Source: Candidatus Angelobacter sp. (GTDB lineage Bacteria > Acidobacteriota > Terriglobia > Terriglobales > Acidobacteriaceae). Taken from it: a stretch of 49,724 bases of DNA. Within the stretch, counting starts at the first letter, position 1. The number at the start of each line of letters is the position of its first letter. The notes under the pieces are model-generated. The model searched no databases and was not told the origin of the DNA. It was given only the letters and a program-made list of their open reading frames with translations. Positions 6,824-49,559 of this stretch are shown here, in pieces. The stretch is from NCBI GenBank assembly GCA_035652415.1, contig DASRDW010000014.1, positions 1 to 49,724 of the forward strand, in the 5' to 3' direction. The position numbers and the translations under genes were made by a program.

Positions 6824-6973
6824 GCTCAAAAAATCGCACGCTTGCAGCACTGACGGAGAGCCCTAAGCGCATAAAGCCGGTTGCACAAACCTGGATACGG
6901 TTGCAGCATCTTACCTTTAGAGCCGCACCGTATTCCATACGTTGCGCAAGCTGCAGCCGTCTCGGGGGGAAGC

Positions 6974-9601: not shown

Positions 9602-10356
9602 GACGATGGCTGGCAGTTTACGCGGTTGGCTTCTTCGCTTTTCTTCACCTGCCTTTGGTTACGCTGGCGGTCTTCAGCTTCAATTCTTCCAAATTCACCG
9701 TCTGGGAGCATTTTTCGCTGGACTGGTATCGCGCGATATTCCGGGACCCTCAGCTTATTGAAGCCACATGGCACAGCGTTGTGATTGCGCTGCTGGCTAC
9801 TGCCATCTCAACAACCATTGGGACGTTGTGCGCCTACGGACTGTGGAAACGAAATTCCCGGTTGCTTACTGGAAGTCTGTATCTATCATTGGTGACGCCC
9901 GAGATTGTGACCGGTGTATCGCTCTTGGCCTTATTCCAATGGAGCTTTCGCTGGCTGCACTGGCATCTTGGACTTTACACCGTTGTTCTTGCCCATGTGG
10001 CGTTTTGTATTGCCTACGTGGTGATTGTTGTTTCCGCTCGATTGCGCACAATATCGCCAAATCTTGAAGAAGCAGCAATGGACCTGGGAGCAAACGAATT
10101 TCAAGCATTCTTCCATGTCATGCTTCCGGCTTTGTTGCCCGGCATCATCGCTGCCGCGCTGCTCGCCCTGACGGTCTCTTTTGACGATTATGTGATCACC
10201 AGCATGGTTGCAGGCGTGGATTCTGAGACTTTGCCGATGGTCATTTATGCCATGGCGCGACGCGGAGCAAGCCCGGTGATCAATGCGATCTCGGCGCTGA
10301 TCACTGTTTTCTTCGGAGCAGTCATCCTGGTCTCGCAGCGGGTACGTGAGTCATGA
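9598..10356 (+). CDS. potC: ABC transporter permease (PotC-like)
   Basis: The ATG at 9598 overlaps the potB stop (ATGA), giving MRRWLAVYAVGFFAFLHLPL... The EAA-loop is LEEAAMDLGANEFQAFFHVMLPALLPG. The upstream part of the 9388 ORF lies inside potB and is not coding. Confidence 0.8.
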   Translation: MRRWLAVYAVGFFAFLHLPLVTLAVFSFNSSKFTVWEHFSLDWYRAIFRDPQLIEATWHSVVIALLATAISTTIGTLCAYGLWKRNSRLLTGSLYLSLVTPEIVTGVSLLALFQWSFRWLHWHLGLYTVVLAHVAFCIAYVVIVVSARLRTISPNLEEAAMDLGANEFQAFFHVMLPALLPGIIAAALLALTVSFDDYVITSMVAGVDSETLPMVIYAMARRGASPVINAISALITVFFGAVILVSQRVRES

Positions 10357-15065: not shown

Positions 15066-15072
15066 CGTGACC

Positions 15073-16614
15073 TCAACTCAGCGGAACGGACTGCCCAGCC
15101 CGCACCCAAACGTATTCAAACCAGAACAAGCCAAACAAAGCCATGATCGCTGCCACAGTCGCAAGCGCTGCTGAATTGCCGAAGACAAAAATTCCCAGAG
15201 GGCACAGGATCCCGAGAATGACTAGCGAGAGAAAATGGCGACTTAACGGGCCGCGAACCAGAGAACGTCGTGCCATACGTTCTTCCGCCGTCCGCTGCGG
15301 CAAAATAAGTTCTATAGCCAAGTTGATCAGCCAGAGAACCAATGACATTTTTAGTGTGAATGCAAAGTAGAGAAGCTGGGCAAATACCGTCGGCTGCTGG
15401 AATATGGTTACGATCCACTGCACGGCTGATCCGGCGACCAACGCTTGCACCAGCAACTGCCAGGCATTGAACCATTTATGCCGCCAGAAATCGCGTCCCT
15501 TGGCCTGGGCAAACAGAAAAGCGGAATACGCAGCAGTGGCAATGGCCAACACCCCTGTGGACCATACGATCACTGCGGGAACACCGAATTCCTCCCACCC
15601 AAAAAAGAGCCACGCAGCCGCGAGCGCTCCATAGACCACAAGAATGTTGCCGCCAAGCACCAGCCATGAGCGAAAATTTGGCTTGATCAGCATGTAGAAG
15701 AAGCGATCAGGACGTTTGAGATCGAAGATGAGCAATGCCAAGGTTGTGGCAACCCCGACCAGCGCGATAATTGGGCTGACAATGTTCAGGCGTGTACCGG
15801 GGGTTCCAAAGAAGATCAGCAGGGCCGAGATCAGAAGCACGCCGGCCGCGATGGACTTTGTCCAGAGGTAGGCTGCAATTTTCCATCCCCACGGGACAGG
15901 ATGAGGCACATCGTACACTTCACGAGTCTGCTTTGCGTCAAAATTGCCGAGTGCCATCGGAGTATCGCGTCGGTCTGCGAACAACAGTGTGTTCTGCTTG
16001 AGAAGCCGCGTTGGCTGTAGCAGATCATCGTGAATGCCGACGTAGTGCAGCTTGGGCAGCGTTTCTTTTTCCGGCTTGCGAACAGAGGTCTTTTTATTCG
16101 CGATGACCGCACCAGGCTTGCTGCTGCTATCGTCCAAGTCCCCAGCCAGAATCGCCTGGGTTGGGCAGACGATCACACAGGCCGGCTCCAGATTTTGCTC
16201 AACGCGATGCGCGCAGAAATTACACTTAGCTGCGGTGTTGCTGTTGGGATCGATATAGAGTGCATCGTAAGGACAAGCCTGCATGCAACTTTTGCAACCG
16301 ATACAGCGGCGATTGTCGAAATCTACGATTCCATCAGAGCGGCGAAAGAGCGAGTGGGTAGGGCAAATCTCAATGCAGGGAGCGTCGTCGCAGTGGTTAC
16401 ATCGCATCACGCCGAAGTGGCGCCGCGTGTCTGGGAACTCGCCGGTCTCCACATATTTCACCCATGTTCGAAAGACCCCAATGGGGACCTGGTGTTCCTC
16501 CTTGCACGCCACCGTACAGGCGTGGCAGCCAATACATCGGTCCTGGTCGATAACGAACCCGTAGCGCATAAAAGAACCATGTATTGTACCCAAGGCGTCG
16601 ACTTCTGGCAGCAT
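15073..16614 (-). CDS. Fused 4Fe-4S ferredoxin (PsrB/DmsB-like) and NrfD/PsrC-like polytopic membrane subunit
   Basis: Four Cys clusters are present: CIGCHACTVACK, CNHCDDAPCIEICP, CIGCKSCMQACP and CNFCAHR...CVIVCP. They are followed by about 8 hydrophobic helices, including the NrfD-like DLKRPDRFFYMLIKPNFRSWLVLG. The start is ambiguous: the M at 16614 has GGAG upstream, the M at 16569 begins MRYGFVIDQ, and the ORF opens at 16686. The gene ends 7 nt before the catalytic subunit gene. Confidence 0.8.
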   Translation of the reverse strand: MLPEVDALGTIHGSFMRYGFVIDQDRCIGCHACTVACKEEHQVPIGVFRTWVKYVETGEFPDTRRHFGVMRCNHCDDAPCIEICPTHSLFRRSDGIVDFDNRRCIGCKSCMQACPYDALYIDPNSNTAAKCNFCAHRVEQNLEPACVIVCPTQAILAGDLDDSSSKPGAVIANKKTSVRKPEKETLPKLHYVGIHDDLLQPTRLLKQNTLLFADRRDTPMALGNFDAKQTREVYDVPHPVPWGWKIAAYLWTKSIAAGVLLISALLIFFGTPGTRLNIVSPIIALVGVATTLALLIFDLKRPDRFFYMLIKPNFRSWLVLGGNILVVYGALAAAWLFFGWEEFGVPAVIVWSTGVLAIATAAYSAFLFAQAKGRDFWRHKWFNAWQLLVQALVAGSAVQWIVTIFQQPTVFAQLLYFAFTLKMSLVLWLINLAIELILPQRTAEERMARRSLVRGPLSRHFLSLVILGILCPLGIFVFGNSAALATVAAIMALFGLFWFEYVWVRAGQSVPLS

Positions 16615-16946
16615 TGCCGCTCCGATACAACTCACAATCCCGCCAAGCTGAGCAGCGGTACCGCCTCGCGGATTCCGCCGTCGCAATGAAACTCGCTTTC
16701 CACGTTTCTGCCACTTTGAGCGCTGTCAAGAGTTCCCGGTAAACGCACTCATCCGGGTTGCTACACAACCAAGACCGTCACCGCATTCTGTAGGTCTGCA
16801 AACCAAAGTAACGTTACGAATTAGTACATTGTTACTAAATATCCGTGGTTCATATAGAAGCACCTCAGTTAATCTGCCTCCTATTGAGATTTCTCCGTAA
16901 AACCAGACGTTCTCAATGGATTTTTGCCCTAAAAGGAAATGGTCAG

Positions 16947-17470: not shown

Positions 17471-20137
17471 ATGCAAACACATTCAAGTGGGGGAAGAGTG
17501 TGCTTTGCCCGATTCATTCTGTTCGTCACATGCGTATGCCTCTTAACCTTGACCTTCGGGTCACAGGCGGCTTCAGCGCAAACTGCGGCGGGAACATCGA
17601 TCGGGAACCAAGCATCGGCTACATACACAGACAGTTCGTCCGTTTCCAGGACAGCCACCTCGAACGTGGTAACCACGGTCGTGCAACAGGTCGCCAGCCT
17701 TACGTTGACGGCCAATGGAGCCAAAACAGCGTCACCGGGTGCGGCAGTGTTCTATCCCCACACACTTACGAACACCGGCAACGGCAGTGACAGCTTTACG
17801 CTGACGCTGGCACCGGCGCAGTCGGGCGCGTTCACCCTGACCAATACGCACATCTATATCGATGCAAACGGTGATGGCGTGCCGGACAACTTCACTGATC
17901 TGACAGGCACACAAGTTACGGTGGCGCCGGGTGCTGCGAATGCATTCAAGTTCGTGATTACCGGCACCGTTCCTCCGAGCGCGACAGCCGGACAGACCAA
18001 CAACTTCTCCGTAACTGCGACTTCGGCGTTCGATAACACCAAGGCGGCGAGCGATACCGATACAACAACGGCGACTTCGAACGCGGTGATCAACATTACG
18101 AAGTCGATGAGTTCAAACTCGGGCGCAGCGGGAAGCGGCCCGTACACCGTTACTTTGACCTACACCAACAACGGCAACAACACGGCCACCACAGTCAACA
18201 TCAGCGATGCATTGCCTGCAGGCATGACCTACGTAGCTGGCAGCGGCCGCTGGAGCGTGACGGGCGCAACTGTGCTGACTGATGCGACAGGCGACGTGCA
18301 GCCGGCTGCTGGTTCGCCGCACATCGATTACAGCGTGACGGCGAATACCGTTACGGCAATCGTCGATCAGGTTGGCGCTGGCGTCTCCGGACAGCTGACC
18401 TTCCAGGTAAATATCGCTCCAGGAACCGCGCCCGGTGTTCTGGCGAACACGGCCACTGATTCCTATAACGATGGCTCAGGCACCACTGTGAACGGCTCCA
18501 GCAACACCTTCAATTTCACAGTGCGCCAAAGCGCATCCGTAACCATCAGCGATACCGGCGTGGCAGCGAACGATAACGACGGCACCATTAACGGCATCGA
18601 CACGATAAATTCCGCCGCGCAGGGCGCTACGGTCACCTTTACCGATGTTGTCACCAATACCGGCAACGGCACCGATTCATTCAACATCACCATTCCTTCC
18701 AATACATTCCCGGCAGGAACGGTCTTTACCCTTTATAAGAGTGATGGAGTCACGCCGCTCATCGATACGAACGGGGACAGCGTTCCTGACACTGGCCCGC
18801 TCGCTGCGGGAGCAAGCTACACTGTGATTGTGAAGGCCGCATTGCCGGCCGGCGCAACCGGCGGCCCGTTCAACGCCACTGCAACAGCAACCTCTACTGT
18901 GGTGGGTGCTCTGAATGCGGGCGCAAACGCCAGCATGATTGATCGCCTGGTTGCCATTACAACCAATACCGTTGATGTCACGAATAACGCCGCGATCGGC
19001 GGCCCCGGCGTGCTGGGCGTAGGCCCCGGACCGGAAGCTTCACCCGTGGTGACGAACGCCACCAATCCGGGCACGACCACAACCTTTACTCTGTTTGTCA
19101 ATAACACCAGCGGCGCCAGCGTAGCGGATTCCTACGACCTCTTGGCGTCTTCAACGACCACCTTCGGCAGCAGCAATTCGCTACCAGCAGGCTGGTCGGC
19201 AACATTCCGCTTCAGCAATGGAACGGATTGTACGGCCGCCAACCTTGGAACAGTCGTTACCAATACCGGCGTGGTGAATGGCGGAACCGCAAAGTTCATT
19301 TGCGCCGTCATCAGCATTCCCAACAACTTCGCCGCAGGCGCGCAAGCCGTGTTCTTCCAGGCAAAATCGCCGACGTCGGGCGCCCTGGACCAGGTTCACG
19401 ATCAAGTGACCGTGAACACGATTCACAACGTAACCCTGACGCCCAACGGATCAAACCAGATCTTCCCGGGCGGCTCGGTGGTGTACACGCACAACTTAAC
19501 CAACAACGGCAACGTTGCTGAAGCCATCACCTTTACCGCACCAATCACTTCTGACAGCCAGAGCGGCTGGAGTTCGGTGCTGTTCCAGGACACCAACACC
19601 AACGGCGTTCTTGACGCCGCTGACCAGGCGGTTTCAACATCGACTACCTTCACGCTCAACCCCGGACAGAGTGTGACCCTGTTCGTTAAAGTCACGTCTC
19701 CAGCCGGAGCGGCGGTAGGCGCTATTGACACCACGACTGCGCGCGCGGGCTACAACGCCACATTTGCTACAGCGCAGGACCAAACCACGGTAATTGCAGG
19801 CGAGTTGAGGCTGAGCAAAGCGCAGTCTCTGGATGCCACCTGCAGCGGCGTGGCGGGAGCGTTTGTACAAACCAACATCACCGCCGGAGCTGTTCCCGGC
19901 GCATGCGTGATTTACCAAATCACGGCGACCAACGCCGGTACCTCGAACATCACCAACGTAGTTGTCAGTGATGCGACACCGGCCTTCACCGTGTATCACA
20001 ACAATCCGGCAGCAAGCACCACGGTCGGCACGATCGTTGCTCCGGCAAAAGGAACCGCTGGAACTATCAGCGCGACAATCGGCACTCTGACTCCAGGACA
20101 GTCAGCTGTAGTCGTCTTCGCGGTGAAGATCCAGTAA
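17471..20137 (+). CDS. Secreted multi-DUF11 (conserved repeat domain) fibre/adhesin-like protein, 888 aa
   Basis: It has a signal peptide ending in ...SQAASAQT. It contains at least six repeats of the pattern xYxHTLTNTGNGSDSFTL (FTDVVTNTGNGTDSFNI, VVYTHNLTNNGNVAEAITF, VIYQITATNAGTSNITNVVVSDATPAFT). It is extremely Thr/Ala/Asn/Gly-rich and ends in ...VVVFAVKIQ. Confidence 0.75.
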   Translation: MQTHSSGGRVCFARFILFVTCVCLLTLTFGSQAASAQTAAGTSIGNQASATYTDSSSVSRTATSNVVTTVVQQVASLTLTANGAKTASPGAAVFYPHTLTNTGNGSDSFTLTLAPAQSGAFTLTNTHIYIDANGDGVPDNFTDLTGTQVTVAPGAANAFKFVITGTVPPSATAGQTNNFSVTATSAFDNTKAASDTDTTTATSNAVINITKSMSSNSGAAGSGPYTVTLTYTNNGNNTATTVNISDALPAGMTYVAGSGRWSVTGATVLTDATGDVQPAAGSPHIDYSVTANTVTAIVDQVGAGVSGQLTFQVNIAPGTAPGVLANTATDSYNDGSGTTVNGSSNTFNFTVRQSASVTISDTGVAANDNDGTINGIDTINSAAQGATVTFTDVVTNTGNGTDSFNITIPSNTFPAGTVFTLYKSDGVTPLIDTNGDSVPDTGPLAAGASYTVIVKAALPAGATGGPFNATATATSTVVGALNAGANASMIDRLVAITTNTVDVTNNAAIGGPGVLGVGPGPEASPVVTNATNPGTTTTFTLFVNNTSGASVADSYDLLASSTTTFGSSNSLPAGWSATFRFSNGTDCTAANLGTVVTNTGVVNGGTAKFICAVISIPNNFAAGAQAVFFQAKSPTSGALDQVHDQVTVNTIHNVTLTPNGSNQIFPGGSVVYTHNLTNNGNVAEAITFTAPITSDSQSGWSSVLFQDTNTNGVLDAADQAVSTSTTFTLNPGQSVTLFVKVTSPAGAAVGAIDTTTARAGYNATFATAQDQTTVIAGELRLSKAQSLDATCSGVAGAFVQTNITAGAVPGACVIYQITATNAGTSNITNVVVSDATPAFTVYHNNPAASTTVGTIVAPAKGTAGTISATIGTLTPGQSAVVVFAVKIQ

Positions 20138-20148
20138 CAAACGCGAGT

Positions 20149-20174
20149 GGGAGGCATGGGATGCCATGCCTCCC
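20149..20174 (+). other. Perfect 11-bp-stem hairpin (GGGAGGCATGG-gatg-CCATGCCTCCC) between the second and third genes of the DUF11 locus
   Basis: Read directly from the sequence. No U-tract follows (tcatccgtaag), so it is more likely a partial terminator, attenuator or mRNA-stabilising element than a canonical intrinsic terminator. Confidence 0.5.
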
Positions 20175-20249
20175 TCATCCGTAAGTCTCTGCCCGCCTCC
20201 TCTTCGGAGACGGGCTTGAGATTTCTTCCGCTTGTCGAGGAGTGTTGCC

Positions 20250-23200
20250 GTGAGTAGAGCTAGGTCCACATCCGTATTGTGGATGTTGCTGCTGGTGTTT
20301 CTCAGCACAGCATCGCGCGGAAGTGTCCCTGCCGGCAGCTCCATTGACAATCAGGCAAGTGCTTCCTACACAGCGTCTTCCGGGACCTCCACAACAGCCG
20401 ATTCCAACGTGGTTCACGTCATTACTCAGGCAGGAGCTGCGGCGCTGACAATTACCAAATCTTCCTCGCAAACCAGCGCAAAGCCGGGCGATCATCCCGC
20501 CTTTACTCTCAACGTTACTAATTCCGGCAGCGTAGACGCGGCTGGAGTCGCTGTCACCATTGATGGCGCTCCCGTTACGCGAGTTGTGATCAGCGATGCC
20601 ATCCCCAACAACACGCGCTTTACTGCGATCGTGAATGCCGGCGGAGCAACACCTCTCTATCACATTCTTGGAACTGGTGCGCAGGCTTATGTGAGCACAG
20701 CGCCCACAGATCTCTCGACGGTTGACTCCGTGGCTTTTGTTTTGACGTCCCTTGCAGCGGGCAACAGCGCCTCGTTCAGCTTCAGCGTCGCCGTCGATAG
20801 CAATGCCAGCGGAACCATCCATAACGTGAGCCAGGTTGCTTTCAATAACGGAGTGGACACAATTGCTCAGTCCAACGCAGTCGATATTCCCGTTTCCGGG
20901 CCGCCGCCGAGCATTGCCTACTATCTTGATTCCAACTTTGCGCGCACCATTCAGGCCACGGCCATGGGCTCGCCCCTGTGGATACAGATTGACGCCGCAG
21001 CCTGCAACCTCGATCCGAGCACGGTTGAGACCAAGCCTATTATTCTCAAGTCACTGCTCACCGGCGACACGGAAACTTTTCTTGCGACCGAGACCGGAGC
21101 CAACACGGGCCTGTTCCGAGTGTTGCCTTCGGTTCCAACGCGCGATGGCGCCAGCAACCCTGTCGCTTCCGGCAACAAGATCATGGAAGTTCTCAGGAAT
21201 GACCAGGTGATTGCGTCGCTCACCGGCTGCGGCGCCAGCACTGTGACCGTTGCCATTTTGATCGATCCGGCGGGCACAATTTTTGACAGCCATACCAATG
21301 CCACCATCGCGGCGGCTTCGGTCACGCTCATTGATGTCAGCGGCAACGGCAATGGCGGCCATCCCAACCAGCCCGCCACCGTGTTGCAGTTCGATGGAGT
21401 TACACCCGCGCCCAGCACCGTTGTGACCAGCGGAAATGGTCAGTTCCAGTTTCCTCAGGTGGCGCCCAGCACTTACCGCATTTCGGTTACGCCGCCGCCA
21501 AGTTTTAGCTTTCCATCCACGGTGCCGCCCGCGCAATTGCCTCCGGGACGCAACATTGATCCCTCAGCTTCCTACAACGGGACATTCACGGTGTCTGCCA
21601 GCAGCGCAACAGCAATCTTTGACGTGCCGCTCGATGCCGCGGCAACGACGCCACTGTTCGTGCAAAAAACCGCGGCACAGCCCCAGGCTGAGGTCGGTAC
21701 CTTTGTTGATTACACCGTGGAAATAAAGAACCTGCTCACCACGCCGGTCACGAACGTACAGGTGACGGATAATTTGCCGCCTGGATTTGTCTATCAGTCG
21801 CGCAGCGCCAGACTGAATGCCGCGCCCATCGCCGATCCGCCCAGCAAAGGCCCGGTGCTGATCTTTAATATCGGCACTCTGGTTCCCAATGCTGATGTAA
21901 ATCTCACGTACCGGGTGCTGATCGGGCCAGGTGCGAACATCGGCGTTGCCGTGAACCATGCCTCTGCAGCCAGCGGCACGCTGCGGTCTAACACGTCAAG
22001 CGCCGCAGTTGTGGTCACTGGAGGCGCATTCAGCGATCAAGGTTTTATCGTGGGCAAAGTTTTCCAGGATTGCAACGGCAATCACATGCAGGATGCGGGC
22101 GAACCCGGTGTCCCCGGCGTGCGGATCTATCTTGAAGACGGGACCTTTGCGATCACCGATGGACAGGGAAAATACAGCATTTATGGCGTGGCGTCTCGCA
22201 CACACATCGTAAAGGTCGATACTCAGAGCCTGCCGCAGGGCGCCAGTCTGCTCGCGATTTCCAGCCGGAACGCCGGCGACGGCGGCAGCCGCTTTGTCGA
22301 TCTGCGCTTTGGAGAAATGCAGAAGGCGGATTTTGCCATCGGCAGCTGTACGCCGGAGATGGCCCAGGAAATCGCGGCGCGGCAGAAGAACGCCGGTGAA
22401 GACAACGAGGTAGGGAAGGCTGTCAAAGCGACATTCAACGTTCAGGAGATTCAAAAAGACCCGACACAACTGAAAGCAATGCCCGCAAGCGGGATGGTGG
22501 ATCCAGCTATAGTTTCACAGGGCAGCGCGAACGCGATTGCTGTGAACTCCCTGAAGAAAGAAGTGGGTTCGCCTGCTCCGGCTTCCATCGCAGCGACCGT
22601 GCCTGCACCGGCCACAGCTCCGGCCACAGCATCGGCAGCGGAGTTGGCCAATCTCAGCAACGATCTGGGTTTTGTGGACCTTCATGACAATGATGTGCTG
22701 CCCTTTACTCAGACCAATGTGCGCATTAAGGGCACGGCCGGGAATACATTCCATCTGCTGGTGAATGGCAAGGAGGCATCAACAAAGCAGGTTGGCACAA
22801 AGACCGTGGTCAAAGATAAACAGTTGGAAGTATGGGAATTCATCGGCATCAACCTTGAACCCGGACGAAACACGGTCCAGGCGCTGCAGTTCGATCCATG
22901 GGGCAACAACCGTGGCGCTGAGTTGATTACGATCATTGCGCCAAGCAAACTGGGAAAGTTAAAGATTACGGGACGCGCCAAAACGTATCCTGCCGACGGA
23001 AAGACGCTGGTCAAGATCGCGATCAACTTGACCGATGCGGCCAATGTTCCCGTCACCGTCCGCACACCCATCACGCTGGAAACCACCGCTGGCTCGTGGA
23101 TAGTCAAAGACCTGAATCCCAACGAGCCAGGAACGCAAGTTTTCATTGAGGGCGGCAAAGCGGAATTCGATCTGCAGCCGCCGATCCAGCCGGGCCCAGC

Positions 23201-25751
23201 AGTCGTGCGCGTCAGCAGTGGCGGAGTCAGCAGTGAAGCCAAACTCGAATTTGTACCAGAGCTGCGCCCGATGGTGGCAGCCGGAGTGGTTGAATATCAG
23301 CTCAATTTTGGCGGCTTGGCGCGGAGCGCGGTGCAACCCTCATTCAATGATGGTTTCGAACAACAGCTCAACCTGTTCTCCATGCAAAATGCCGACGGTT
23401 CATTCGGCTCGTCGGGCCACGCTGCCTTGTTCCTGAAGGGCAAAATACTGGGCTCAAATCTTGTGACGCTGGCCTACGATTCCGACAAGACTACGCAAAG
23501 CCAGTTGTTCCGCGATATCCAGCCGGACCAGTTCTATCCGATCTATGGCGACTCATCTGTGCGTGGCTTTGATGCTCAATCCACCAGCAAGGCTTACCTC
23601 CGCATCGATCACGGAACCAGCTACGTTGTTTATGGCGACTTCCTGACTTCAGACCCTTCCACGGCCAACAGCTTGAGCAACTACAGCCGCAGCATGACCG
23701 GCGTACAGGAACACTACAGCAACAACCGTGTGAACTTGACCGGCTTCGCGAGCTACGATTCGCTGACCCAAGTAGTTGACGAGCTGCCAGCCAACGGAAC
23801 TTCCGGGCCATTTATCCTCTCGAATCCCAACGGGGTAGAGAACAGTGAGAAGGTTGAGGTTCTCACTCGTGACCGGAACCAGCCCTCCGTGATTCTGGAC
23901 ATCCGTGAGCTCACTCGATTTGCCGACTATGAATTTGAGCCGCTGTCAGGCGAGTTGCTCCTGAAAGCGCCTCTGCCGTCGCTCGATTCGAGTCTCAATC
24001 TTCTTTCACTGCGGATTACCTATGAAGTCAATCAAGGTGGTGACCGCTTCTGGGTTGGTGGGGGCACCGGCACCTTTAAGCTGAATAACTTCTTGCAGCT
24101 TGGTGGAACCATGGTTGATGATTCCAATCCCGCGGATCCTAACAAGCTGTTTGGAGTAAATAGCAAGCTGACTCTGCCAGGCAAGACCATGTTCAATGCG
24201 GAGTTTGCCGGCACAGACCATGAAATAACTGAAGGGCTGGGTTTCGGGTATCGCCTGGAAATGCAGCATGACGGTGAAAAGTTGAAGACCAAGGCCTACG
24301 TCAGCCGCACCGACCAGGATTTCGACAATCCGACTTCCATCGTGAATAAGGGTAGAGGCGAGGATGGACTGAAGACCAGCTACACTCTGGGGCAAGGAAT
24401 GCGCTTGCTGGGCGAATATATAAGGACTGAAGACGTAACCTTGGGAGGCGTTCAGCAGGGTGGTTATGCAGGCATTGAAAAGAGTTTCCCCGGCAACATA
24501 CAGTCTCAATTTGGTTTTCGTCACGCAGAGACGACTGCGATCCCGGCAACTCCGGACCAGACCGGCACCACTCCGAACTCCATGAATACACTGGAGGCCA
24601 AACTGAGTTTCCCGGTCCCGCATTTCAATCGCCTCACCGCAACTTCCGACTATGAGCAGGATGTTTCCGATAGCAGCCAACGGGTCCTTGCCTTTGGGGC
24701 GAACTACAGGTTTTGGGAAAAGGGCAGGGTCTATTTCCGGCAGGAAGTGATCTCATCGCTGGGCGACATCTACGCGTTGAATCCGCTACAGCGCCGCAAT
24801 ACTACCCAAATTGGAGTTGAGAGTGCCTACTTCAAAGATGCCCGTGTCTTCAGCGAGTACCGCATTCATGACGACATTGACGGTCGCGATGCCGAAGCCG
24901 CCATTGGCCTGCGCAACAACTGGCACATTGCCAAAGGACTCACCGGCAACACCACAGTCGAGAGCGTGCGCACGCTGAACAACGTTATAGATGGAGTCAG
25001 TATCAATTCTCTGGCTCTTACGGGAGCGTTGGAGTACACAGCTCATGAGAATTGGAAAGCATCTGCCCGGTCGGAGTGGCGTGGCTCAACTAATGGTGAC
25101 AGCATTCTCGGAACGATCGGTTTTGCTGCCCGCTTGTCTGATGCCTGGTCATTCCTGGGCCGCAACATTATTTCAGATACCACCACGAAAGGTACAACAG
25201 AGACCAGAAACATCCAGGACCGCTTGCAGGCCGGCTTCGCATTGCGCGACTTTGAGCGCAACCGCTGGAACGCCCTGGCCATGATGGAATTGAAGAATGA
25301 CAATGACAATTCGCAGCCGACAAACCTGATAAACACTCGCGTCGCCATTTTCTCAACTACTGCCAACTATCAGGTGGCTGCGCCGTTCACACTTTCGGCC
25401 CGTTATGCGGCGGAGTGGAACCTCGATAACACCAGCGGACTTTCAACCTCGGCGACAACGCAGCTGGTCGGTATTCGCGAAACCTGGGATGTGGGCAAGC
25501 GCTGGGATGTGGGCGCAACCTTCAGCACCATGTTCAGCGGCGCTGCCAACTCGCGCCAGTATGAAATGGGGCCGGAGTTCGGATATCGCGTGATATCCAA
25601 CATGTGGGTTTCCACCGGCTACAACTTCACCGGCTTCCGTAATGATGATCTCGCTGGCGAGAACGTGACACGCCGCGGAGCGTTTGTGCGCATGCGCTTC
25701 AAGTTCGATGAAAACATCTTTAGCCCGCGCAAGGAGGCCCAGCAGCAATGA
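20250..25751 (+). CDS. Giant outer-membrane protein: N-terminal DUF11/SdrD-B/Big-like domains fused to a C-terminal ~830-aa beta-barrel-like region
   Basis: The GTG at 20250 is preceded by GAGGAG; the track's TTG start is at 20232. The signal is SRARSTSVLWMLLLVFLSTASRG. DUF11 motifs include FTLNVTNSGSVDAAGVAV and VDYTVEIKNLLTTPVTNVQVTDNLPPGF. An SdrD-B-like motif is VFQDCNGNHMQDAGEPGVPGVRIYLEDG. From about 23240 onward there are at least 20 alternating amphipathic strand pairs (LSLRITYEV, GFGYRLEMQH, VLAFGANYRFW, LALTGALEYTA...). The region ends in the OMP-type terminus GAFVRMRFKF. Confidence 0.75.
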   Translation: MSRARSTSVLWMLLLVFLSTASRGSVPAGSSIDNQASASYTASSGTSTTADSNVVHVITQAGAAALTITKSSSQTSAKPGDHPAFTLNVTNSGSVDAAGVAVTIDGAPVTRVVISDAIPNNTRFTAIVNAGGATPLYHILGTGAQAYVSTAPTDLSTVDSVAFVLTSLAAGNSASFSFSVAVDSNASGTIHNVSQVAFNNGVDTIAQSNAVDIPVSGPPPSIAYYLDSNFARTIQATAMGSPLWIQIDAAACNLDPSTVETKPIILKSLLTGDTETFLATETGANTGLFRVLPSVPTRDGASNPVASGNKIMEVLRNDQVIASLTGCGASTVTVAILIDPAGTIFDSHTNATIAAASVTLIDVSGNGNGGHPNQPATVLQFDGVTPAPSTVVTSGNGQFQFPQVAPSTYRISVTPPPSFSFPSTVPPAQLPPGRNIDPSASYNGTFTVSASSATAIFDVPLDAAATTPLFVQKTAAQPQAEVGTFVDYTVEIKNLLTTPVTNVQVTDNLPPGFVYQSRSARLNAAPIADPPSKGPVLIFNIGTLVPNADVNLTYRVLIGPGANIGVAVNHASAASGTLRSNTSSAAVVVTGGAFSDQGFIVGKVFQDCNGNHMQDAGEPGVPGVRIYLEDGTFAITDGQGKYSIYGVASRTHIVKVDTQSLPQGASLLAISSRNAGDGGSRFVDLRFGEMQKADFAIGSCTPEMAQEIAARQKNAGEDNEVGKAVKATFNVQEIQKDPTQLKAMPASGMVDPAIVSQGSANAIAVNSLKKEVGSPAPASIAATVPAPATAPATASAAELANLSNDLGFVDLHDNDVLPFTQTNVRIKGTAGNTFHLLVNGKEASTKQVGTKTVVKDKQLEVWEFIGINLEPGRNTVQALQFDPWGNNRGAELITIIAPSKLGKLKITGRAKTYPADGKTLVKIAINLTDAANVPVTVRTPITLETTAGSWIVKDLNPNEPGTQVFIEGGKAEFDLQPPIQPGPAVVRVSSGGVSSEAKLEFVPELRPMVAAGVVEYQLNFGGLARSAVQPSFNDGFEQQLNLFSMQNADGSFGSSGHAALFLKGKILGSNLVTLAYDSDKTTQSQLFRDIQPDQFYPIYGDSSVRGFDAQSTSKAYLRIDHGTSYVVYGDFLTSDPSTANSLSNYSRSMTGVQEHYSNNRVNLTGFASYDSLTQVVDELPANGTSGPFILSNPNGVENSEKVEVLTRDRNQPSVILDIRELTRFADYEFEPLSGELLLKAPLPSLDSSLNLLSLRITYEVNQGGDRFWVGGGTGTFKLNNFLQLGGTMVDDSNPADPNKLFGVNSKLTLPGKTMFNAEFAGTDHEITEGLGFGYRLEMQHDGEKLKTKAYVSRTDQDFDNPTSIVNKGRGEDGLKTSYTLGQGMRLLGEYIRTEDVTLGGVQQGGYAGIEKSFPGNIQSQFGFRHAETTAIPATPDQTGTTPNSMNTLEAKLSFPVPHFNRLTATSDYEQDVSDSSQRVLAFGANYRFWEKGRVYFRQEVISSLGDIYALNPLQRRNTTQIGVESAYFKDARVFSEYRIHDDIDGRDAEAAIGLRNNWHIAKGLTGNTTVESVRTLNNVIDGVSINSLALTGALEYTAHENWKASARSEWRGSTNGDSILGTIGFAARLSDAWSFLGRNIISDTTTKGTTETRNIQDRLQAGFALRDFERNRWNALAMMELKNDNDNSQPTNLINTRVAIFSTTANYQVAAPFTLSARYAAEWNLDNTSGLSTSATTQLVGIRETWDVGKRWDVGATFSTMFSGAANSRQYEMGPEFGYRVISNMWVSTGYNFTGFRNDDLAGENVTRRGAFVRMRFKFDENIFSPRKEAQQQ

Positions 25752-28700
25752 GCCTCATGCAACAAAAGAGGGTCTGCCGCGCGGCGTGGAAGACGCTCTG
25801 TCTTCTGCGGACGGCGGTGTTGTCTCCTCGATTTGTGTGGGGATGCGCAGTCTTCTTGCTTCTGCTGGCCAGCATCGTTGACGCCAGGGCGGCGGATGTG
25901 CGCGACCAGGTCTACGCTGTAGGTGTCGACGTTCGAAATATCTACTTGGTGAATGCGAACGGGACGGTCACCAGCCAATTCAGCAACTACTCGGCCACTG
26001 CATCGGCAGCTGCAGCACAGCGAGCCAGCGATGGCGTGATCTACTTCATCACTCAGGTCGCAAACGGTACGGTCTTTACTTGGAACCCTGCAACACCCGC
26101 GACAGCGCCCGTGCAGCTCGGCACCACCGGAGCCTCAGTTCCATATATTCCTCGCCTGGCATTCTCGGCGAGCGGCGTGCTATACGGCGTGGACACGAAC
26201 ACCGCCAACCTTTACATCATTGATCAATCTACGGGCGCGGCAACCGTGGTAGGAGCGCTTTCAGGTGTGCCGGTGAACCTGGGAGGCGACATTGGGTTTG
26301 GACCGGATGGGACCTTATATATGGTCGCCGGCGTTACGATTTATACCGTCCCGCTGACCGGCGGAGCCGTTACCAGTCTGGGGACGATCAGCGGAATTTC
26401 CAGAAATGCGACTGCGATTGTCGGCATAACCTTCAATGCCAGTGGTCAGATGCTCGTTGCGGATGACCAAACGCCCGCGAAGCTCTATACAGTCGCTCTA
26501 CCTTCACGTGTTGCCACGGCGCTTTCCGGAACCATGGCCACATCGCAGGGCGATCTGGCCAGCGCCCCCCGCGTGCAGATCAGCGGTACTGTTTTTGAAG
26601 ACGTCAATTACGGAGGCGGCGCCGGGCGAAGTCTCGCTTCTTCTGCGGGTGTGGGTGTTGCCAACGCACGCGTGGAGCTTTATGACGCCTCCGGGAATTT
26701 TGTCGCTTTCACGACCACGAATGCGTCCGGAAGTTACACCCTGACCGGTGCGCCGGGACTGACTTATACCATCCGTGTGGTCAATTCATCCGTTGACTCA
26801 ACCCGTCCCGGATCGGTTGCAGCGCTCATTGGCGTGCAGACTTTTCGCACGAGTGGGTTGACAGGTACGGTCGGCACAGCGGACACAAACCGTGTCGGCG
26901 GCGAGGATCCCACCAAGATAGATGCAGGTAATGGCAGCACAACTTTGGCTGCTCTGACCACATCGACTACTACCGCTGAATCAATCACCAGCGTTTCGCT
27001 CGGTGCAAGCAGTGTTACCGGAATCGATTTTGGATTCAACTTCGACACTATTGTAAGCACGCGCGATTCTGGGCAAGGGACTCTGCGTCAATTCATTACC
27101 AACAGCAACACGCTGACGAATGCGGGACTCAGCCAATCAGGCCAAACCGCCGGCGTGGAAACCAGCATCTTTATGATCTCCAATGGCGCTGCGGTGCCCG
27201 GGTTGCGCGCTGGGCTCACGAATCAGTTGACCGGCAGCGTGGCGCAAATCATTCCCGCGACCCAGTTGCCCGCAATCACTGATAGCAACACATCAATCGA
27301 CGGAACCACGCAAACGAGCAACCTGAACGATACAAACTCAGGGACTCTGGGCGCCGGCGGCACGGTTGGAGTGGATTCGCTGACCTTGTCAACAGTGAAC
27401 AGGCCGGACGTACAGATCAGTACGGCCCAGGGAACGATTGGGCTGGGAATCCAGATTCAGGGCAGCAATACCCGGCTGCGCGGCCTTGCTATTTTTGGTT
27501 TCGGGACCGCAGCCAATACCAACGGCAGCGCCAACATTGAAATTGAGACCGGCGGCAGCAACGCCAGCCTCAAGCAATTAATCGTGGGAACCAGCGCTAC
27601 CGCTTTCAGCGATCCCGGAGCGACCGTGCGCTCACGCGGTGACAATATTCGCTCCAACGGCGGCGATAGCGGAACGGTGCAAAACAGCCTGATCGGATTC
27701 TCACAAGGGAAAGGCATTGCTCTGGAAGCGACATCGACCGGCTGGACCATCCAAAATAATGAGGTGCGCGGCAACGGGATTAACAATCCAGGATTCGGCG
27801 GGATGAACATCGGTACCGGTTCCACTGCCACCGTCAGTGGCAATTTGTTTATTGCTTCGCAGGGGCCGGGAATCGATACGTCGCAAAGTTCCGGCGGCTA
27901 TACGCTCACTGACAACACGGTCACCGGCAACGGTACGGGCAGCGGCGCGACACTCGTGGATGCCGGAATTCGCATCTTTGGCAGCGGGAACACGGTGAGT
28001 AAGAACGTGATCTCCAGCAACGTGGGCGCTGGAATACTGGTGACGTTGGGCTCGCCGACTACCACCATCACGCGAAACTCTATTTCCCTGAACGGGACCG
28101 CAGGCGGCACGCCGACCCATGAAGTCGGCATCGACTTGCTCTCCGCGAGCGACAATCAATTGTTAGGCACTTCTCCGTTTGTTACGCTGAATTCTGCTGG
28201 AACACATACGGGCGGCAATGGCTTGTTGAATTATCCGATTCTACAAACCGCAACCATCAGCTCAGGCATACTCACGCTTACTGGATTCGCTCGACCGGGC
28301 TCAGTCATCGAACTTTTCATCGCCAATCCCGATCCTTCAGGTTTTGGACAGGGTCAGACCTTCGTGACGACCCTGACTGAAGGCTCAGCGTCTGACCTGG
28401 ACAACACGACTGGAACTTACGGCCCAGCTGCGATCAACGGAATCAGCCAGGGAACCGATACCACGAACCGTTTCAAATTCGTCATCACAGTGCCGTCAGG
28501 CGTGGGAACAGGCACCGTGCTGACGGCAACGGCTACGCTGGGCGGCGCAACATCAGAGTTCAGCGGCAATGTCACCGTGTCAGTCTCAACCGTCGTCAAC
28601 GGAACCGTCTACCTCGATACCAATCATAATGGCGCATTGGATAGCGGTGAGACGTGGACCAGCGGCGCTCCCGTTTTCGTGAACCTGGTCTCGAGTGGGG

Positions 28701-29971
28701 CCGTCGTTCAATCGGTTACAGTACCTGCCGGCGCAGGCACATTTTCATTTACCAATGTGGCGGCCGGAACGTACACAATCGTGCTGACGAACTCAGCTGC
28801 GTCAACTGTGGCGGCTGCGCCCACTGGATTTGCTTTTGTCACGCCCGGCACCGGGCAGTTGCAACTCACAGTTTCCAATGGCGTTCTCAACAATGAGAAT
28901 TTCGGGCTCTTTAAAGGCAGTATGGTGACCGGAAGGATTTTTAAAGACAACGGCGCAGGTGGCGGCACGGCCAACAACGGAATCCTTGATGGCGCCGAGG
29001 CAGGGCTCTCCGGCGTATCCATAAAAGCCACTGACGGCGGCAGCACCGTGTTTGATACAGAGGTGTCCGGCAGCGACGGTTCTTACTCGCTTTTCATCAC
29101 AGCCGGCGCGACTACTGTGGCGATCGTCAAAACCAATCCAGCAAACTACATTGCGACCGGCGCGTCGGTTGGCACCACGGTAGGCGGCTACAATCGCGCC
29201 ACAGACACTGTTACCTTCACCAAGGCGACTGAAGGCTTTTTTACCGGCGTGAATTTCGGCGTGGTTCCTGTGAACACTTTCCAGGCTGACGGCGCGCAGC
29301 AGGCGCTTCCAAACACTACGCTCTTCTACGCGCATATTTTCAGTCCAGGAACAGCAGGGCAGGTCACCTTTACCATTGCGTCAACAACATCCCCGAGCAA
29401 TGTTCTGTTCAGCCACATTCTTTATCAGGACACCGCTTGCAGCGGCGTTATCACTGCCAGTGATCCAGTGATTTCTGGTCCGGTTACCACCGTTGCGGGA
29501 ACGAATCTATGTATCCTGATGAAGGTTACCGTGCCGAGCGGTGCACCCTTGAATTCGAGCGATGCAGCCGTGTTGACCGCCAGCTTCTCTTATACCAATG
29601 CCAACCCGGCACTCAATGCCACATATACAGTGAAAGACCTGACCACAGTGGGTACGCCAACTACTGCAGGTTTGCGTCTGGAGAAGGCTGTTGATAAGGC
29701 AACTGCCCTGCCGGGCGCGAACCTCACTTACACGCTGACATTCACCAATGACAGCAGCGGCGCCATCTCCAACATCGTCATCAATGATGCGACACCTGCA
29801 TACACAAATTTTGTCAGCGCCGCCTGCGGTGCTCCGTTGCCAGCCAGCCTGACAGCGTGCTCCGTTACTGCGCCCGCAGCTGGCCAGACGGGAAACATTC
29901 AGTGGACATTCACGGGTACCCTCAATCCCAGCCAGACCGGGACGGTCTCGTTTGTCGTCAAAATCCAGTAA
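25748..29971 (+). CDS. Secreted 1407-aa multidomain protein: propeller-like N-terminus, SdrD-B/CnaB-like domains, parallel beta-helix repeats, C-terminal DUF11
   Basis: Its ATG overlaps the upstream stop (ATGA). The N-terminus has Val/Gly/Thr-rich repeated blades (VIYFIT, VLYGVD, LYMVAG, QMLVAD). SdrD-B-like motifs are ISGTVFEDVNYGGGAG, VNGTVYLDTNHNGALDSGE and VTGRIFKDNGAGGGTANNGILDG. Beta-helix repeats include NNEVRGNGINNPG, NTVTGNGTGSG, NVISSNVGAGI and NSISLNGTAGG. The terminal DUF11 is LTYTLTFTNDSSGAISNIVINDATPAYT...VSFVVKIQ. Confidence 0.75.
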   Translation: MSLMQQKRVCRAAWKTLCLLRTAVLSPRFVWGCAVFLLLLASIVDARAADVRDQVYAVGVDVRNIYLVNANGTVTSQFSNYSATASAAAAQRASDGVIYFITQVANGTVFTWNPATPATAPVQLGTTGASVPYIPRLAFSASGVLYGVDTNTANLYIIDQSTGAATVVGALSGVPVNLGGDIGFGPDGTLYMVAGVTIYTVPLTGGAVTSLGTISGISRNATAIVGITFNASGQMLVADDQTPAKLYTVALPSRVATALSGTMATSQGDLASAPRVQISGTVFEDVNYGGGAGRSLASSAGVGVANARVELYDASGNFVAFTTTNASGSYTLTGAPGLTYTIRVVNSSVDSTRPGSVAALIGVQTFRTSGLTGTVGTADTNRVGGEDPTKIDAGNGSTTLAALTTSTTTAESITSVSLGASSVTGIDFGFNFDTIVSTRDSGQGTLRQFITNSNTLTNAGLSQSGQTAGVETSIFMISNGAAVPGLRAGLTNQLTGSVAQIIPATQLPAITDSNTSIDGTTQTSNLNDTNSGTLGAGGTVGVDSLTLSTVNRPDVQISTAQGTIGLGIQIQGSNTRLRGLAIFGFGTAANTNGSANIEIETGGSNASLKQLIVGTSATAFSDPGATVRSRGDNIRSNGGDSGTVQNSLIGFSQGKGIALEATSTGWTIQNNEVRGNGINNPGFGGMNIGTGSTATVSGNLFIASQGPGIDTSQSSGGYTLTDNTVTGNGTGSGATLVDAGIRIFGSGNTVSKNVISSNVGAGILVTLGSPTTTITRNSISLNGTAGGTPTHEVGIDLLSASDNQLLGTSPFVTLNSAGTHTGGNGLLNYPILQTATISSGILTLTGFARPGSVIELFIANPDPSGFGQGQTFVTTLTEGSASDLDNTTGTYGPAAINGISQGTDTTNRFKFVITVPSGVGTGTVLTATATLGGATSEFSGNVTVSVSTVVNGTVYLDTNHNGALDSGETWTSGAPVFVNLVSSGAVVQSVTVPAGAGTFSFTNVAAGTYTIVLTNSAASTVAAAPTGFAFVTPGTGQLQLTVSNGVLNNENFGLFKGSMVTGRIFKDNGAGGGTANNGILDGAEAGLSGVSIKATDGGSTVFDTEVSGSDGSYSLFITAGATTVAIVKTNPANYIATGASVGTTVGGYNRATDTVTFTKATEGFFTGVNFGVVPVNTFQADGAQQALPNTTLFYAHIFSPGTAGQVTFTIASTTSPSNVLFSHILYQDTACSGVITASDPVISGPVTTVAGTNLCILMKVTVPSGAPLNSSDAAVLTASFSYTNANPALNATYTVKDLTTVGTPTTAGLRLEKAVDKATALPGANLTYTLTFTNDSSGAISNIVINDATPAYTNFVSAACGAPLPASLTACSVTAPAAGQTGNIQWTFTGTLNPSQTGTVSFVVKIQ

Positions 29972-43669: not shown

Positions 43670-44102
43670 TCATTTTGGCTGGGTCATGCTGAACCAGTTG
43701 CCAAATGGGTCTTTGAAGACTGCTTCTACGCCATAAAACTGTTCTTTGGGCGGCGATACAAACTCAACGCCCTTGGCCTTCATCTCTTCATAGGTCTTGC
43801 GGCAATCAGCAGTTTGGAAGACTCCTGCGCCGAATGCGCCTTTCTTCATCAGTTCACGGATAGTATCCACATCTTTAGTCTGGATTCTCTGCACGCCAGC
43901 GCCGTCAAATGGTGAAAGGCGCAACTTTCATCAAAATGATTTCCAGGTCAGGCTGGCCTTTCGGCGAGACCGTAAGCCAGCGAAAGCCGTTGGGCATTGA
44001 TTCGTCCATCTTTACTTCAAAGCCCAGCTTGTTAACGTAAAAATCTTTGGCTACGTCCTGGTCGATCACAAAAATCGCAGAATGTGACATGCGTTGGATC
44101 AT
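43670..44102 (-). pseudogene. VOC (glyoxalase/bleomycin-resistance) family gene interrupted by a frameshift
   Basis: Two overlapping ORFs (43905-44123 and 43670-43924) together give one VOC protein. The parts are MIQRMSHSAIFVIDQDVAKDFYVNKLGFEV...DLEIILMKVAPF and DVDTIRELMKKGAFGAGVFQTADCRKTYEEMKAKGVEFVSPPKEQFYGVEAVFKDPFGNWFSMTQ. Confidence 0.6.
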
Positions 44103-44189
44103 AGAAATCTCCTTCAGCAACACGTTAGCTGGTCAGAGGGATGTTAGCTGACGAAAGCAAAACTATGCTTCTTAGTTCTTGCTTTTCTT

Positions 44190-47859: not shown

Positions 47860-48816
47860 GTGAAAGCCACATTGCATCTGTTGGTAAGCCATCCTTATTT
47901 TGTATTGTTGATCTCCGGTATGTTAGAGCGGGTTGGCGCGCCGCTGTTGTTTTCGCCGGTTTTGGTAGCTGCTGGGGCCCTGGCCGCTGCTGGACAGCTA
48001 CGCTTCGATATTGCGCTCTGGATCGCTCTTTTCACTTGTATAGTCGGTGATGCCTTGTGGTTTGAGCTGGGCAGAAAGAAAGGGAACTCTGTGCTTTCCA
48101 CGCTCTGCCGCATCTCTTTTGAGCCTGATAGCTGCGTGCGCCGTTCCAAGATCTTTTTTGAAAAGGGCTCCAATCGCACTCTGTTTTTTTCCAAATGGCT
48201 CCCTGGTGTGTCTCATGTAGTGCCGGCTGTGGCTGGTCTTTCCGGTGTTGATCGCCAGCATTTCTTTCTTACAAACCTTGGCGGTTCGGCGGTATGGGTT
48301 GTACTGCTAATGCTTGCCGGTTATCTACCGGTAGAGCGAATTCATGTGGCATCGGCTGTGGCTCCGGTGATTTTTGAAGCCAGCCTGGCTGTGTTGGCTG
48401 GAAACGTTGGCATCAAGTACTGGCAGCGGCATCGCTTCCTTAAAGAGCTCTACAAATCACGCATCACTCCAGAAGAGGTCAAGCAGATGTTGGATTCCGG
48501 TGAGAACCTCGTGATCCTCGATCTGCGCCATCCTCTGGATTCCGTCAACGATCCTCGTACTCTGCCGGGCGCAATCCGCGTTTTGCCGGAAGAGGTGACC
48601 AGTCGCGCCAGCACCTTACCCAAGGACGAGGAGATCATCCTCTACTGCACTTGACCTAATGAAGCTACGAGTGCCCGGGTGGCACAACAATTGCAAAAAT
48701 TAGGGATCAAGCGCGTGCGTCCTCTGCAGGGCGGCTTTCACCATTGGAAAGAGCTGGGCTATCCGCTTGTTGATCCCACTGAGGTTGCCTGGGTCACAGC
48801 CCATCACAAAGCTTGA
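47860..48816 (+). CDS. DedA/VTT-domain membrane protein fused to a rhodanese domain; an in-frame TGA at 48652-48654 marks a candidate selenocysteine (otherwise a truncated gene ending at 48654)
   Basis: The DedA motifs are IVGDALWFELGRKKG and FFSKWLPGVSHVVPAVAG. The rhodanese domain is LVILDLRHPLD...EEIILYCT-TGA-PNEATSARVAQQLQKLGIKRVRPLQGGFHHWKELGYPLV. The same frame stays open for 53 more codons, to TGA 48814-48816. Confidence 0.55.
48655..48704 (+). promoter_or_regulatory. SECIS-like stem-loop immediately 3' of the in-frame UGA
   Basis: The outer helix is CCUAAU (48655-60) paired with AUUAGG (48699-704). The apical hairpin is GUGCC-CGGGU-GGCAC (48671-85). The loop starts 21 nt after the UGA and has G at its second position. 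Confidence 0.4.
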
Positions 48817-49559
48817 TCGATCTTGAAAGCGTGGTCCTTTAAATCTTGCACAGCGGCCTTGATATTTTCTGCCTTGCCCAAATCGCGCCAGTAAGCGCCT
48901 TCTGCGTGATAGCCAAGGATTTTTTCGCCCTGTCCAGCTAGCCGAAGATAAGACTCAATGATAGAAAAAACGCCGTCTTCACTCATCATTTCGAGCAGCC
49001 GCGGCGAGATGATGTGAATACCCGTGAACGCCAGTTCTTTGGGCTGTTCTACAGGTTTCACCATCTCGGTTTTCTGCTCTTTAATTATCCGTCGTCCGCA
49101 AAGTTGCATTTGCTCGTCGAATAGCAGATATCGTGAGGTTTCGCGCTGCTGCACTGCCAATGTTGCCATGGCTTTGTTTTGTTGATGAGATTCCAACATC
49201 AGTCCAAGATCTATCGTGCTTATTACATCAACGTTATGAAGGATGAAGGATGCAGGACGACTGTCCTCAAGAAAAAACCAGGATGCTTTCTTGAGCCCGC
49301 CGCCCGTATCAAGTAATGCATCTTCCCGTGAAATCTCCACCCGGATGTTGAAGTTGTTCTTTAACTTCAGGTAATCCATGATGAGGCCGGAGAAATGATG
49401 CGCATTGATGATGACTTCGCGCACGCCGAACTGGCGCAAGCGGGCAATGGTGATCTCAAGCAGCGTGTGTCCCGCCACTTCTACCAACGCCTTAGGCCGG
49501 TCATTGGTCAGCGGACGCAGGCGCGTACCCAGCCCGGCAGCCAGAATCATGGCTTTCAT
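48804..49559 (-). CDS. Sugar-1-phosphate nucleotidyltransferase (NTP_transferase family; MurU/mannose-1-P guanylyltransferase-like)
   Basis: The N-terminus is [35 protein letters not shown]. Its ATG overlaps the rapZ stop (ATGA). Confidence 0.85.

Follow-up and report, generated by a model that had tools for sequence, protein, structure and literature searches.

A probable DedA–rhodanese selenoprotein with a short SECIS-like hairpin in Candidatus Angelobacter and related Acidobacteriota

The DedA–rhodanese locus

We analyzed a stretch of 49,724 nucleotides (nt) from Candidatus Angelobacter sp., contig DASRDW010000014.1 (the window; coordinates are window positions), and describe a gene at 47860–48816 on the plus strand that very probably encodes a selenoprotein of 318 amino acids (aa). 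Its product would join a DedA membrane domain to a rhodanese domain, with an in-frame UGA codon read as selenocysteine (Sec, U) in the motif C263-T-U265. All features of this gene given below lie on the same strand.

The mechanically called open reading frame (ORF; 47860–48654) has 264 aa, starts with GTG at 47860 and ends with ...KDEEIILYCT followed by TGA at 48652–48654. The residues before this codon are L261-Y262-C263-T264. Cys263, encoded by TGC at 48646–48648, opens the C-x-U motif as its invariant first residue and directly follows the central beta-strand of the rhodanese domain. Past the TGA the same frame continues as PNEATSARVAQQLQKLGIKRVRPLQGGFHHWKELGYPLV... for 53 sense codons up to a second TGA at 48814–48816, which gives a 318-aa product with a GTG start and a single in-frame UGA. 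The preliminary description of this DNA had reported the in-frame UGA, the 53-codon continuation and the 318-aa product, and a check of the ORF and its translation bears out all three. Orthologues are alignable across the TGA over residues 1–314 of 318. The true stop codon at 48814–48816 lies within a 13-nt overlap with the end of a convergent NTP-transferase gene (48804–49559, minus strand). UGA is also the commonest ordinary stop codon in the window, where it ends 11 of the 23 Pfam-supported ORFs, and a genome-wide reassignment of UGA is therefore excluded.

The DedA/VTT membrane domain covers residues 32–156 (47953–48327; PF09335, 50.8 bits against a cutoff of 33.9) and is all-helical in a confident AlphaFold2 model. 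The rhodanese domain, residues 203–298 (48466–48753), spans the UGA and is recognized by PF00581 (46.8 bits), by the NCBIfam model NF041203, rhodanese_LYCAU (95.6 bits), and by Foldseek, which matches the model solely to rhodanese structures such as 3tp9 and 6mxv. The structure was modeled for the Cys-containing orthologue P0001 from a 52-sequence alignment (predicted local distance difference test score, pLDDT, 89.9); in it a central strand (258–262) is followed by the coil C263-T264-C265 and a helix that begins at P266. The succession of PF09335, above its gathering score, and PF00581 fits the rhodanese-fused COG0586-type DedA/VTT architecture. The DedA domain has no equivalog-level match to the characterized DedA/UptA undecaprenyl-phosphate flippases (NF008102, 53.9 bits, cutoff 236; UptA NF052604, 28.5 bits, cutoff 250). 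The protein is predicted to sit in the inner membrane, with the rhodanese domain on the cytoplasmic side by the positive-inside rule.

Alignment conservation also reveals a cysteine pair, C83...C92, in a cytoplasmic loop of the DedA domain (motif LCRISxEPDxCVRR, 48106–48135). Across 52 diverse family members the conservation of each residue is 90% or more, and 12 Sec forms have both without exception. The pair is specific to the rhodanese-fused DedA subfamily, and to our knowledge it is absent from DedA proteins of the E. coli YqjA type. C83 and C92 may serve the C-x-U site as a redox or metal partner.

Conservation of the UGA codon and the downstream frame

A search of about 5.8 billion proteins returned relatives of which the 120 closest clusters are 70–95% identical to the window protein; all but three of these (117/120) terminate at ...LYCT. 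Two Cys-form orthologues, P0001 (317 aa) and P0002 (316 aa), are uninterrupted and read LYCTCPNEATSARVAQQLQKLGI, with Cys in place of the window TGA. Among 18 orthologous loci in GTDB species-representative genomes (Candidatus Angelobacter and other Terriglobia), this codon is TGA in 17 and TGT in one, L006. A second clade, of metagenome loci whose proteins are roughly 40–50% identical to that of the window and whose NCBI names include Acidoferrales, Acidoferrum and 'Acidobacteriia', has TGA at 63 of 77 loci and TGC or TGT at the other 14, and the downstream frame is kept. The comparison of TGA with TGC or TGT in orthologues, proposed in the preliminary description, thus returns only these two kinds of codon, Sec-type and Cys-type, in both sets of loci.

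More distant relatives came from a profile-free search of 1.84 billion cluster representatives. Among the best 150 (50%-identity representatives, 30–60% identical to the window protein), 47 end in ...C[TSDA] at about residue 261–275, at least 61 run to full length and carry C-x-C-P-x-E, and some 17 more have close variants. This distribution shows the DedA–rhodanese architecture to be large and old.

The sequence after the TGA evolves as protein-coding sequence. Over the 50 positions that follow it in the 18 genome loci, the amino acids are kept and the third codon positions are free to vary. The ratio of nonsynonymous to synonymous substitution (dN/dS, Nei-Gojobori) is 0.067 downstream of the TGA (codons +1 to +47) versus 0.087 upstream, and the codons after the TGA are under strong purifying selection. 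The frame is unbroken across the TGA in all 80 TGA loci, and a conserved start codon downstream of it is absent. The pattern is not that of a TGA confined to this strain and followed by decayed sequence, one of the observations that the preliminary description had named as fatal to its proposal: the codon is widespread and the sequence beyond it is constrained.

In a neighbor-joining tree of 84 sequences, Fitch parsimony counts at least four switches between Sec and Cys, and the Cys forms L006 and L036 are nested within Sec clades. On this tree, then, Sec and Cys forms have changed into one another at least four times within the clade sampled. L006, the lone TGT form in the Angelobacter clade, retains an intact copy of the hairpin described below, including its CGGGU loop (6793–6833 of that locus), which suggests that its conversion from Sec to Cys was very recent. 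A set of matches to "KDEEIILY" in the genome scan (L019–L033) was set aside; these are ordinary CRSGNRS rhodaneses or MoeB-type proteins.

A short hairpin downstream of the UGA

A candidate apical hairpin of a selenocysteine insertion sequence (SECIS) lies at 48671–48685. It consists of the strands GUGCC (48671–48675) and GGCAC (48681–48685), which form a G+C-rich stem of five base pairs (bp), and the 5-nt loop CGGGU (48676–48680), which lies 21 nt past the UGA and carries G at its second position. [quoted passage not shown] The window hairpin, with a fold of -7.6 kcal/mol, satisfies all of them.

Comparison with relatives ties the hairpin to the UGA. The 5-bp stem shows pairing in 100% of cells across 19 close sequences, among which one change from U-A to C-G is compensatory. 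A perfect stem is present in 76 of 78 Sec forms versus 5 of 15 Cys forms, and the loop follows the consensus CGKGY (C-G-[G/U]-G-[U/C]) in 78 of 78 Sec forms versus 1 of 15 Cys forms. Two pairs covary among the 78 TGA forms: columns 21–33 are C-G in 54 and U-A in 17, and columns 18–36, the next-but-one pair outward, are C-G in 32 and G-C in 12. Each of these pairs joins two synonymous third positions. The observed stem covariation exceeds that of all 500 shuffles and of all slid registers, and the synonymous rate (dS) of the five hairpin codons is 0.25 versus about 1.3–1.5 in the flanks. Because Cys forms use other codons for the same S-A-R peptide, amino-acid constraint fails to explain the hairpin pattern. 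By this comparative evidence the hairpin is a genuine RNA element tied to the UGA. The hairpin of the preliminary description has the geometry given there, and it is both covarying and retained specifically in TGA forms.

That description had also nested the hairpin in an outer helix, CCUAAU (48655–48660) with AUUAGG (48699–48704). The two strands are able to pair in the window sequence, but the helix lacks conservation, with pairing in 73% of cells and one position left unpaired in 18 of 19 sequences. A GC/GC middle helix was likewise rejected as a conserved structure; between them the two helices show pairing of 71–73%.

We also scanned all fetched DNA for a TGA followed by a bSECIS-like hairpin in an open frame. 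Outside the DedA–rhodanese family there were 13 matches, all of which resemble off-frame noise. A Redoxin ORF in the window has an ordinary CGYC motif.

The active-site loop

The acidic loop C263-T-U-P-N-E-A-T-S271 exceeds the canonical C-X4-R-S by two residues, includes Glu and lacks Arg; it departs from the six-residue loop of GlpE/PspE-type enzymes, C-X4-R-[ST], which has basic residues. Each of 52 sequences has C263, and position 265 is nearly always C or U. The preliminary description placed the UGA precisely on the catalytic Cys. Profile alignments to the six-residue-loop structures 6mxv, 1yt8 and 3iwh agree, with U/C265 on the catalytic Cys, whereas in alignments to 3tp9 and to the long-loop BH2092 (3nhv) it is the invariant C263 that falls there. 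Depending on the alignment, the canonical catalytic position is taken by U265 or, two residues before it, by C263, and the safe statement is that a C-x-U motif lies in the active-site loop. Sec in selenoproteins normally occupies the reactive position, and for that reason we take U265 as the probable nucleophile and C263 as its resolving partner.

Relationship to known families

The best NCBIfam match of the rhodanese domain is NF041203, 'rhodanese_LYCAU, rhodanese-related (seleno)protein', which is likewise the top match for 23 of 23 rhodanese domains tested from the family. A 2026 review of prokaryotic selenoproteomes distinguishes five rhodanese selenoprotein forms, of which form 3 corresponds to NF041203 (earlier named COG0607 form 2), with the motif CxU and the reference protein TKB26178.1. 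The window domain and this family share the same fold and the motif LYC-x-U-PNE-x-TSAR-x-AQ, with LYCTU here and LYCAU in the reference. TKB26178.1 (...KDTTIVLYCAUPNEYTSARLAQKL...) is 41% identical to the window domain over 102 residues, with U aligned on U, and shares the conserved peptide S-A-R-[VL]-A, whose codons form the hairpin. The proteins differ in architecture. TKB26178.1 is a stand-alone protein of 150 aa with a signal-peptide-like N-terminus, and the NF041203 model has 126 positions; in the window protein the rhodanese, with a predicted cytoplasmic location, forms the C-terminal third of a polytopic DedA protein and comes after a DedA domain of about 200 aa.

The preliminary description regarded a fusion of such a domain to a DedA protein as undescribed. 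Such fusions are in fact in the literature, as Cys forms only and with a function called unclear; an example is Pseudomonas aeruginosa PA1209 (311 aa), of a COG0586 DedA subfamily. PA1209, which we compared by its description, has the same domains (PF09335 and PF00581) and falls in the same length class. Descriptions of these fusions speak of Cys proteins and mention no selenocysteine form. The Cys-form relatives in our analysis have C-x-C-P-N-E at the same place and are annotated as 'DedA family protein/thiosulfate sulfurtransferase GlpE'. A second comparison is TsoB (NF045694, 'rhodanese form 5'), also a rhodanese selenoprotein fused to a membrane module. By description rather than by sequence, it is set apart by a DsbD-like partner, two Sec residues and the motif UxxxxU.

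The Sec forms (clusters P0003–P0120 and P0272–P0278; L034, 10001–10957) are annotated as a 264–268-aa 'VTT domain-containing protein' or 'membrane protein DedA' followed by an ORF of about 45 aa. Their scores fall below the NF041203 cutoff, and the NCBI pipeline therefore leaves proteins of the window type unnamed and truncates them. Hundreds of clusters from soil Acidobacteriota that are deposited as 264–268 aa would in fact be DedA–rhodanese selenoproteins of about 318 aa. NCBIfam has no model that reaches its cutoff on these proteins, and the 2026 catalogue of prokaryotic selenoprotein families does not include them; the text of that review contains neither DedA nor 'membrane protein' nor 'transmembrane'. 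The proposed mechanism is standard bacterial Sec recoding and the Sec domain comes from a recognized CxU rhodanese lineage. What is new is the DedA-fused, membrane-embedded selenoprotein architecture, its abundance in soil Acidobacteriota and its systematic mis-annotation.

Decoding of the UGA codon

The central proposal of the preliminary description, that UGA replaces Cys in the rhodanese active-site loop and is followed by a SECIS-like hairpin, is upheld by the exchange of TGA and Cys codons among orthologues, the low dN/dS downstream, the covariation of the stem and the homology to NF041203. The UGA at 48652–48654 would then not act as a stop. Instead, the mRNA hairpin at 48671–48685 would recruit SelB, carrying GTP and Sec-tRNA(Sec), to the ribosome, and Sec would be inserted as residue 265 to give the active-site motif L-Y-C263-T-U265-P-N-E; this sequence of steps is read from the sequence signature. 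The assignment of U265 draws on the TGA and Cys codon counts and on the alignment with the U of TKB26178.1. The proposed decoding resembles that of E. coli fdhF, where SelB acts with an in-frame SECIS immediately 3' of the UGA. In both cases the hairpin lies inside the coding region, has an apical loop with G and then G or U, is spaced within 16–37 nt and constrains the encoded peptide (S-A-R-V-A here). In contrast to fdhF, the upper stem is much shorter, with 5 bp in the window and 6–8 bp in the Acidoferrales-type clade, and the binding of SelB is predicted.

Several observations weigh against this interpretation. The locus counts for TGA versus Cys and for the hairpin are not phylogenetically independent. 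Taken alone, the window sequence is unremarkable: 53 open codons after the UGA are not beyond chance (probability of about 0.08), and the hairpin is minimal, with 5 bp and an energy of -7.6 kcal/mol, near the bSECIS threshold. In a shuffling test of the window hairpin the z-score is -0.21, and 80 of 200 shuffles fold as well. Rfam has no match in the window at its gathering threshold, and a permissive search of 48560–48830 returns only a meaningless snoRNA. The window protein, at 95.6 bits, does not reach the curated NF041203 cutoff of 115 bits, nor does the domain ranked top by E-value among 23 related domains (91.6 bits). Searches for Sec machinery were also negative within the DNA that they covered, which was the window, the orthologous loci and 630 kb of fetched DNA, not the whole source genome: ARAGORN finds no tRNA-Sec in the window or the 18 orthologous loci, Pfam finds no sel genes among about 30 window ORFs, and E. 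coli SelA, SelB and SelD have no tblastn match in the window and all fetched loci (630 kb). Finally, the gene neighborhoods of both clades contain no sulfur or selenium genes, which bears on the biochemical role.

The significance of the frame and the hairpin comes wholly from the comparison with relatives, and there it is overwhelming. Sec use in the phylum is also documented. A 2006 survey found three selenoprotein families in Acidobacteria; Occallatibacter riparius is a Sec user in the literature, with FDH-alpha (the formate dehydrogenase alpha subunit), AhpD-like and deiodinase-like selenoproteins; and acidobacterial [NiFeSe] hydrogenases appear in the literature on selenoproteins. Sec decoding in this lineage is supported by the evolutionary signature together with this phylum- and class-level literature.

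Among the alternatives, translation of the UGA as something other than Sec fares best, and we give it a small chance. The codon would be read by an opal-suppressing non-canonical tRNA inserting Ser or Cys, or by a near-cognate tRNA-Trp at a leaky UGA-C. UGA-C is a weak termination context, and the context is UGA-C-C at all 78 sites. The candidate suppressors are acidobacterial allo-tRNAs, possible nonsense suppressors that the literature describes as frequent on acidobacterial contigs, and tRNA-Sec-like tRNA-Cys, known as tRNA-Cys(UCA) from other phyla. However, selC*-type tRNA-Cys has not been reported in Acidobacteria in the literature, and suppression in general would be costly where UGA is the commonest stop. 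The strict exchange of UGA and Cys at one active-site position is the classic signature of Sec, the hairpin that is retained with the UGA fits the SelB-type bSECIS model, and the domain belongs to a recognized selenoprotein family with U at the same position; all three argue against this alternative and for Sec.

A genuine stop is less likely still. The gene would then encode a 264-aa DedA protein with a truncated rhodanese stub, and the downstream frame would be separate (for example from GTG 48679) or untranslated. This is how every gene caller and the NCBI and JGI annotations treat the locus, as a 264-aa 'VTT domain-containing protein' and a 45-aa ORF. Since Sec insertion has to compete with termination, some truncated product is to be expected regardless. 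Yet the frame is continuous in every TGA locus with no conserved start beyond the codon, the Cys-form orthologues are single uninterrupted proteins, the downstream frame is itself constrained (dN/dS 0.067), and a rhodanese fold cut after its central strand loses three helices and the last strand in the AlphaFold2 model.

A nonsense mutation, pseudogene or assembly error in this strain has next to no chance and is already refuted by comparison, even though the window holds at least one disrupted gene (the frameshifted glyoxalase at 43670–44123), since the same TGA recurs in independent assemblies of 17 species-level genomes, in 63 metagenome loci and more than 100 protein clusters of 70–95% identity, with the sequence downstream under purifying selection.

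Possible roles and gene neighborhoods

If the UGA is decoded as Sec, U265 would lie at the N-terminal end of the helix after the central strand, where it would most likely be the nucleophile that accepts sulfane sulfur or selenium. Alternatively, it may form a selenylsulfide with the invariant C263 two residues upstream. The protein would be a membrane-tethered chalcogen-transfer or redox module on a DedA domain of the transporter/flippase type, and the Cys-for-Sec orthologues would perform the same job with their C-x-C motif.

A more specific and distinctly speculative idea, which we consider unlikely, is a membrane chalcogen relay. C83/C92 of the DedA domain and C263-x-U265 of the rhodanese domain would work jointly at the membrane, either taking up and reducing selenite or sulfane sulfur or handing it on. 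Production of the complete protein would hinge on selenium supply, and the UGA would serve as a selenium-sensing switch between truncated and complete protein. Reviews cite a genetic link of a DedA protein to selenite uptake in Ralstonia, which is a lead rather than evidence. If the relay were true, it would offer a first functional handle on the fusion of DedA to rhodanese domains.

In the Angelobacter clade the gene is flanked by a divergent Ion_trans_2 channel gene on one side and the convergent NTP-transferase gene on the other. In the distant clade (L036–L115), judged by sequence motifs only, 30 of 77 loci have a nitroreductase-like gene immediately upstream in the same orientation, and 20 of 77 have dcd (dCTP deaminase) downstream in the opposite orientation. 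The nitroreductase-like neighbor may be an operon partner or may reflect mere shared ancestry.

The gene would add a polytopic-membrane selenoprotein to the DedA superfamily, whose rhodanese fusions the literature calls functionally unexplained. Sec at the C-x-C site would mark it as chemically critical and point to a definite target for mutation in tractable Cys-form homologues such as PA1209. The distribution of the Sec forms suggests that abundant soil Terriglobia use selenium beyond their annotated selenoproteomes. The hairpin, for its part, would be a very small and well-sampled natural SECIS with clear covariation, useful for SECIS models.

Other features of the window

The glyoxalase/VOC-family gene at 43670–44123 (minus strand) is split into two overlapping ORFs in different frames, 43905–44123 and 43670–43924. 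The split reflects a frameshift, from either pseudogene decay or a sequencing indel, and the ENA contig likewise calls two fragments. On the plus strand at 17471–29971 there are three consecutive giant ORFs (888, 1839 and 1407 aa) with DUF11, SdrD_B, CarboxypepD_reg and beta-helix repeats, which look like a surface adhesin-like protein cluster.

At 12234–16686 (minus strand), a molybdopterin oxidoreductase of 943 aa with an Fe4S4 domain adjoins a 537-aa ORF in which a 4Fe-4S dicluster subunit and an NrfD-type membrane subunit are fused. The arrangement resembles a polysulfide or tetrathionate reductase, and an in-frame UGA was not seen in it. Two ABC-permease ORFs (BPD_transp_1) at 8774–10356 (plus strand) overlap by about 210 nt as listed; the overlap likely comes from a mechanical start at TTG 9388, upstream of the real start, and not from a gene defect.

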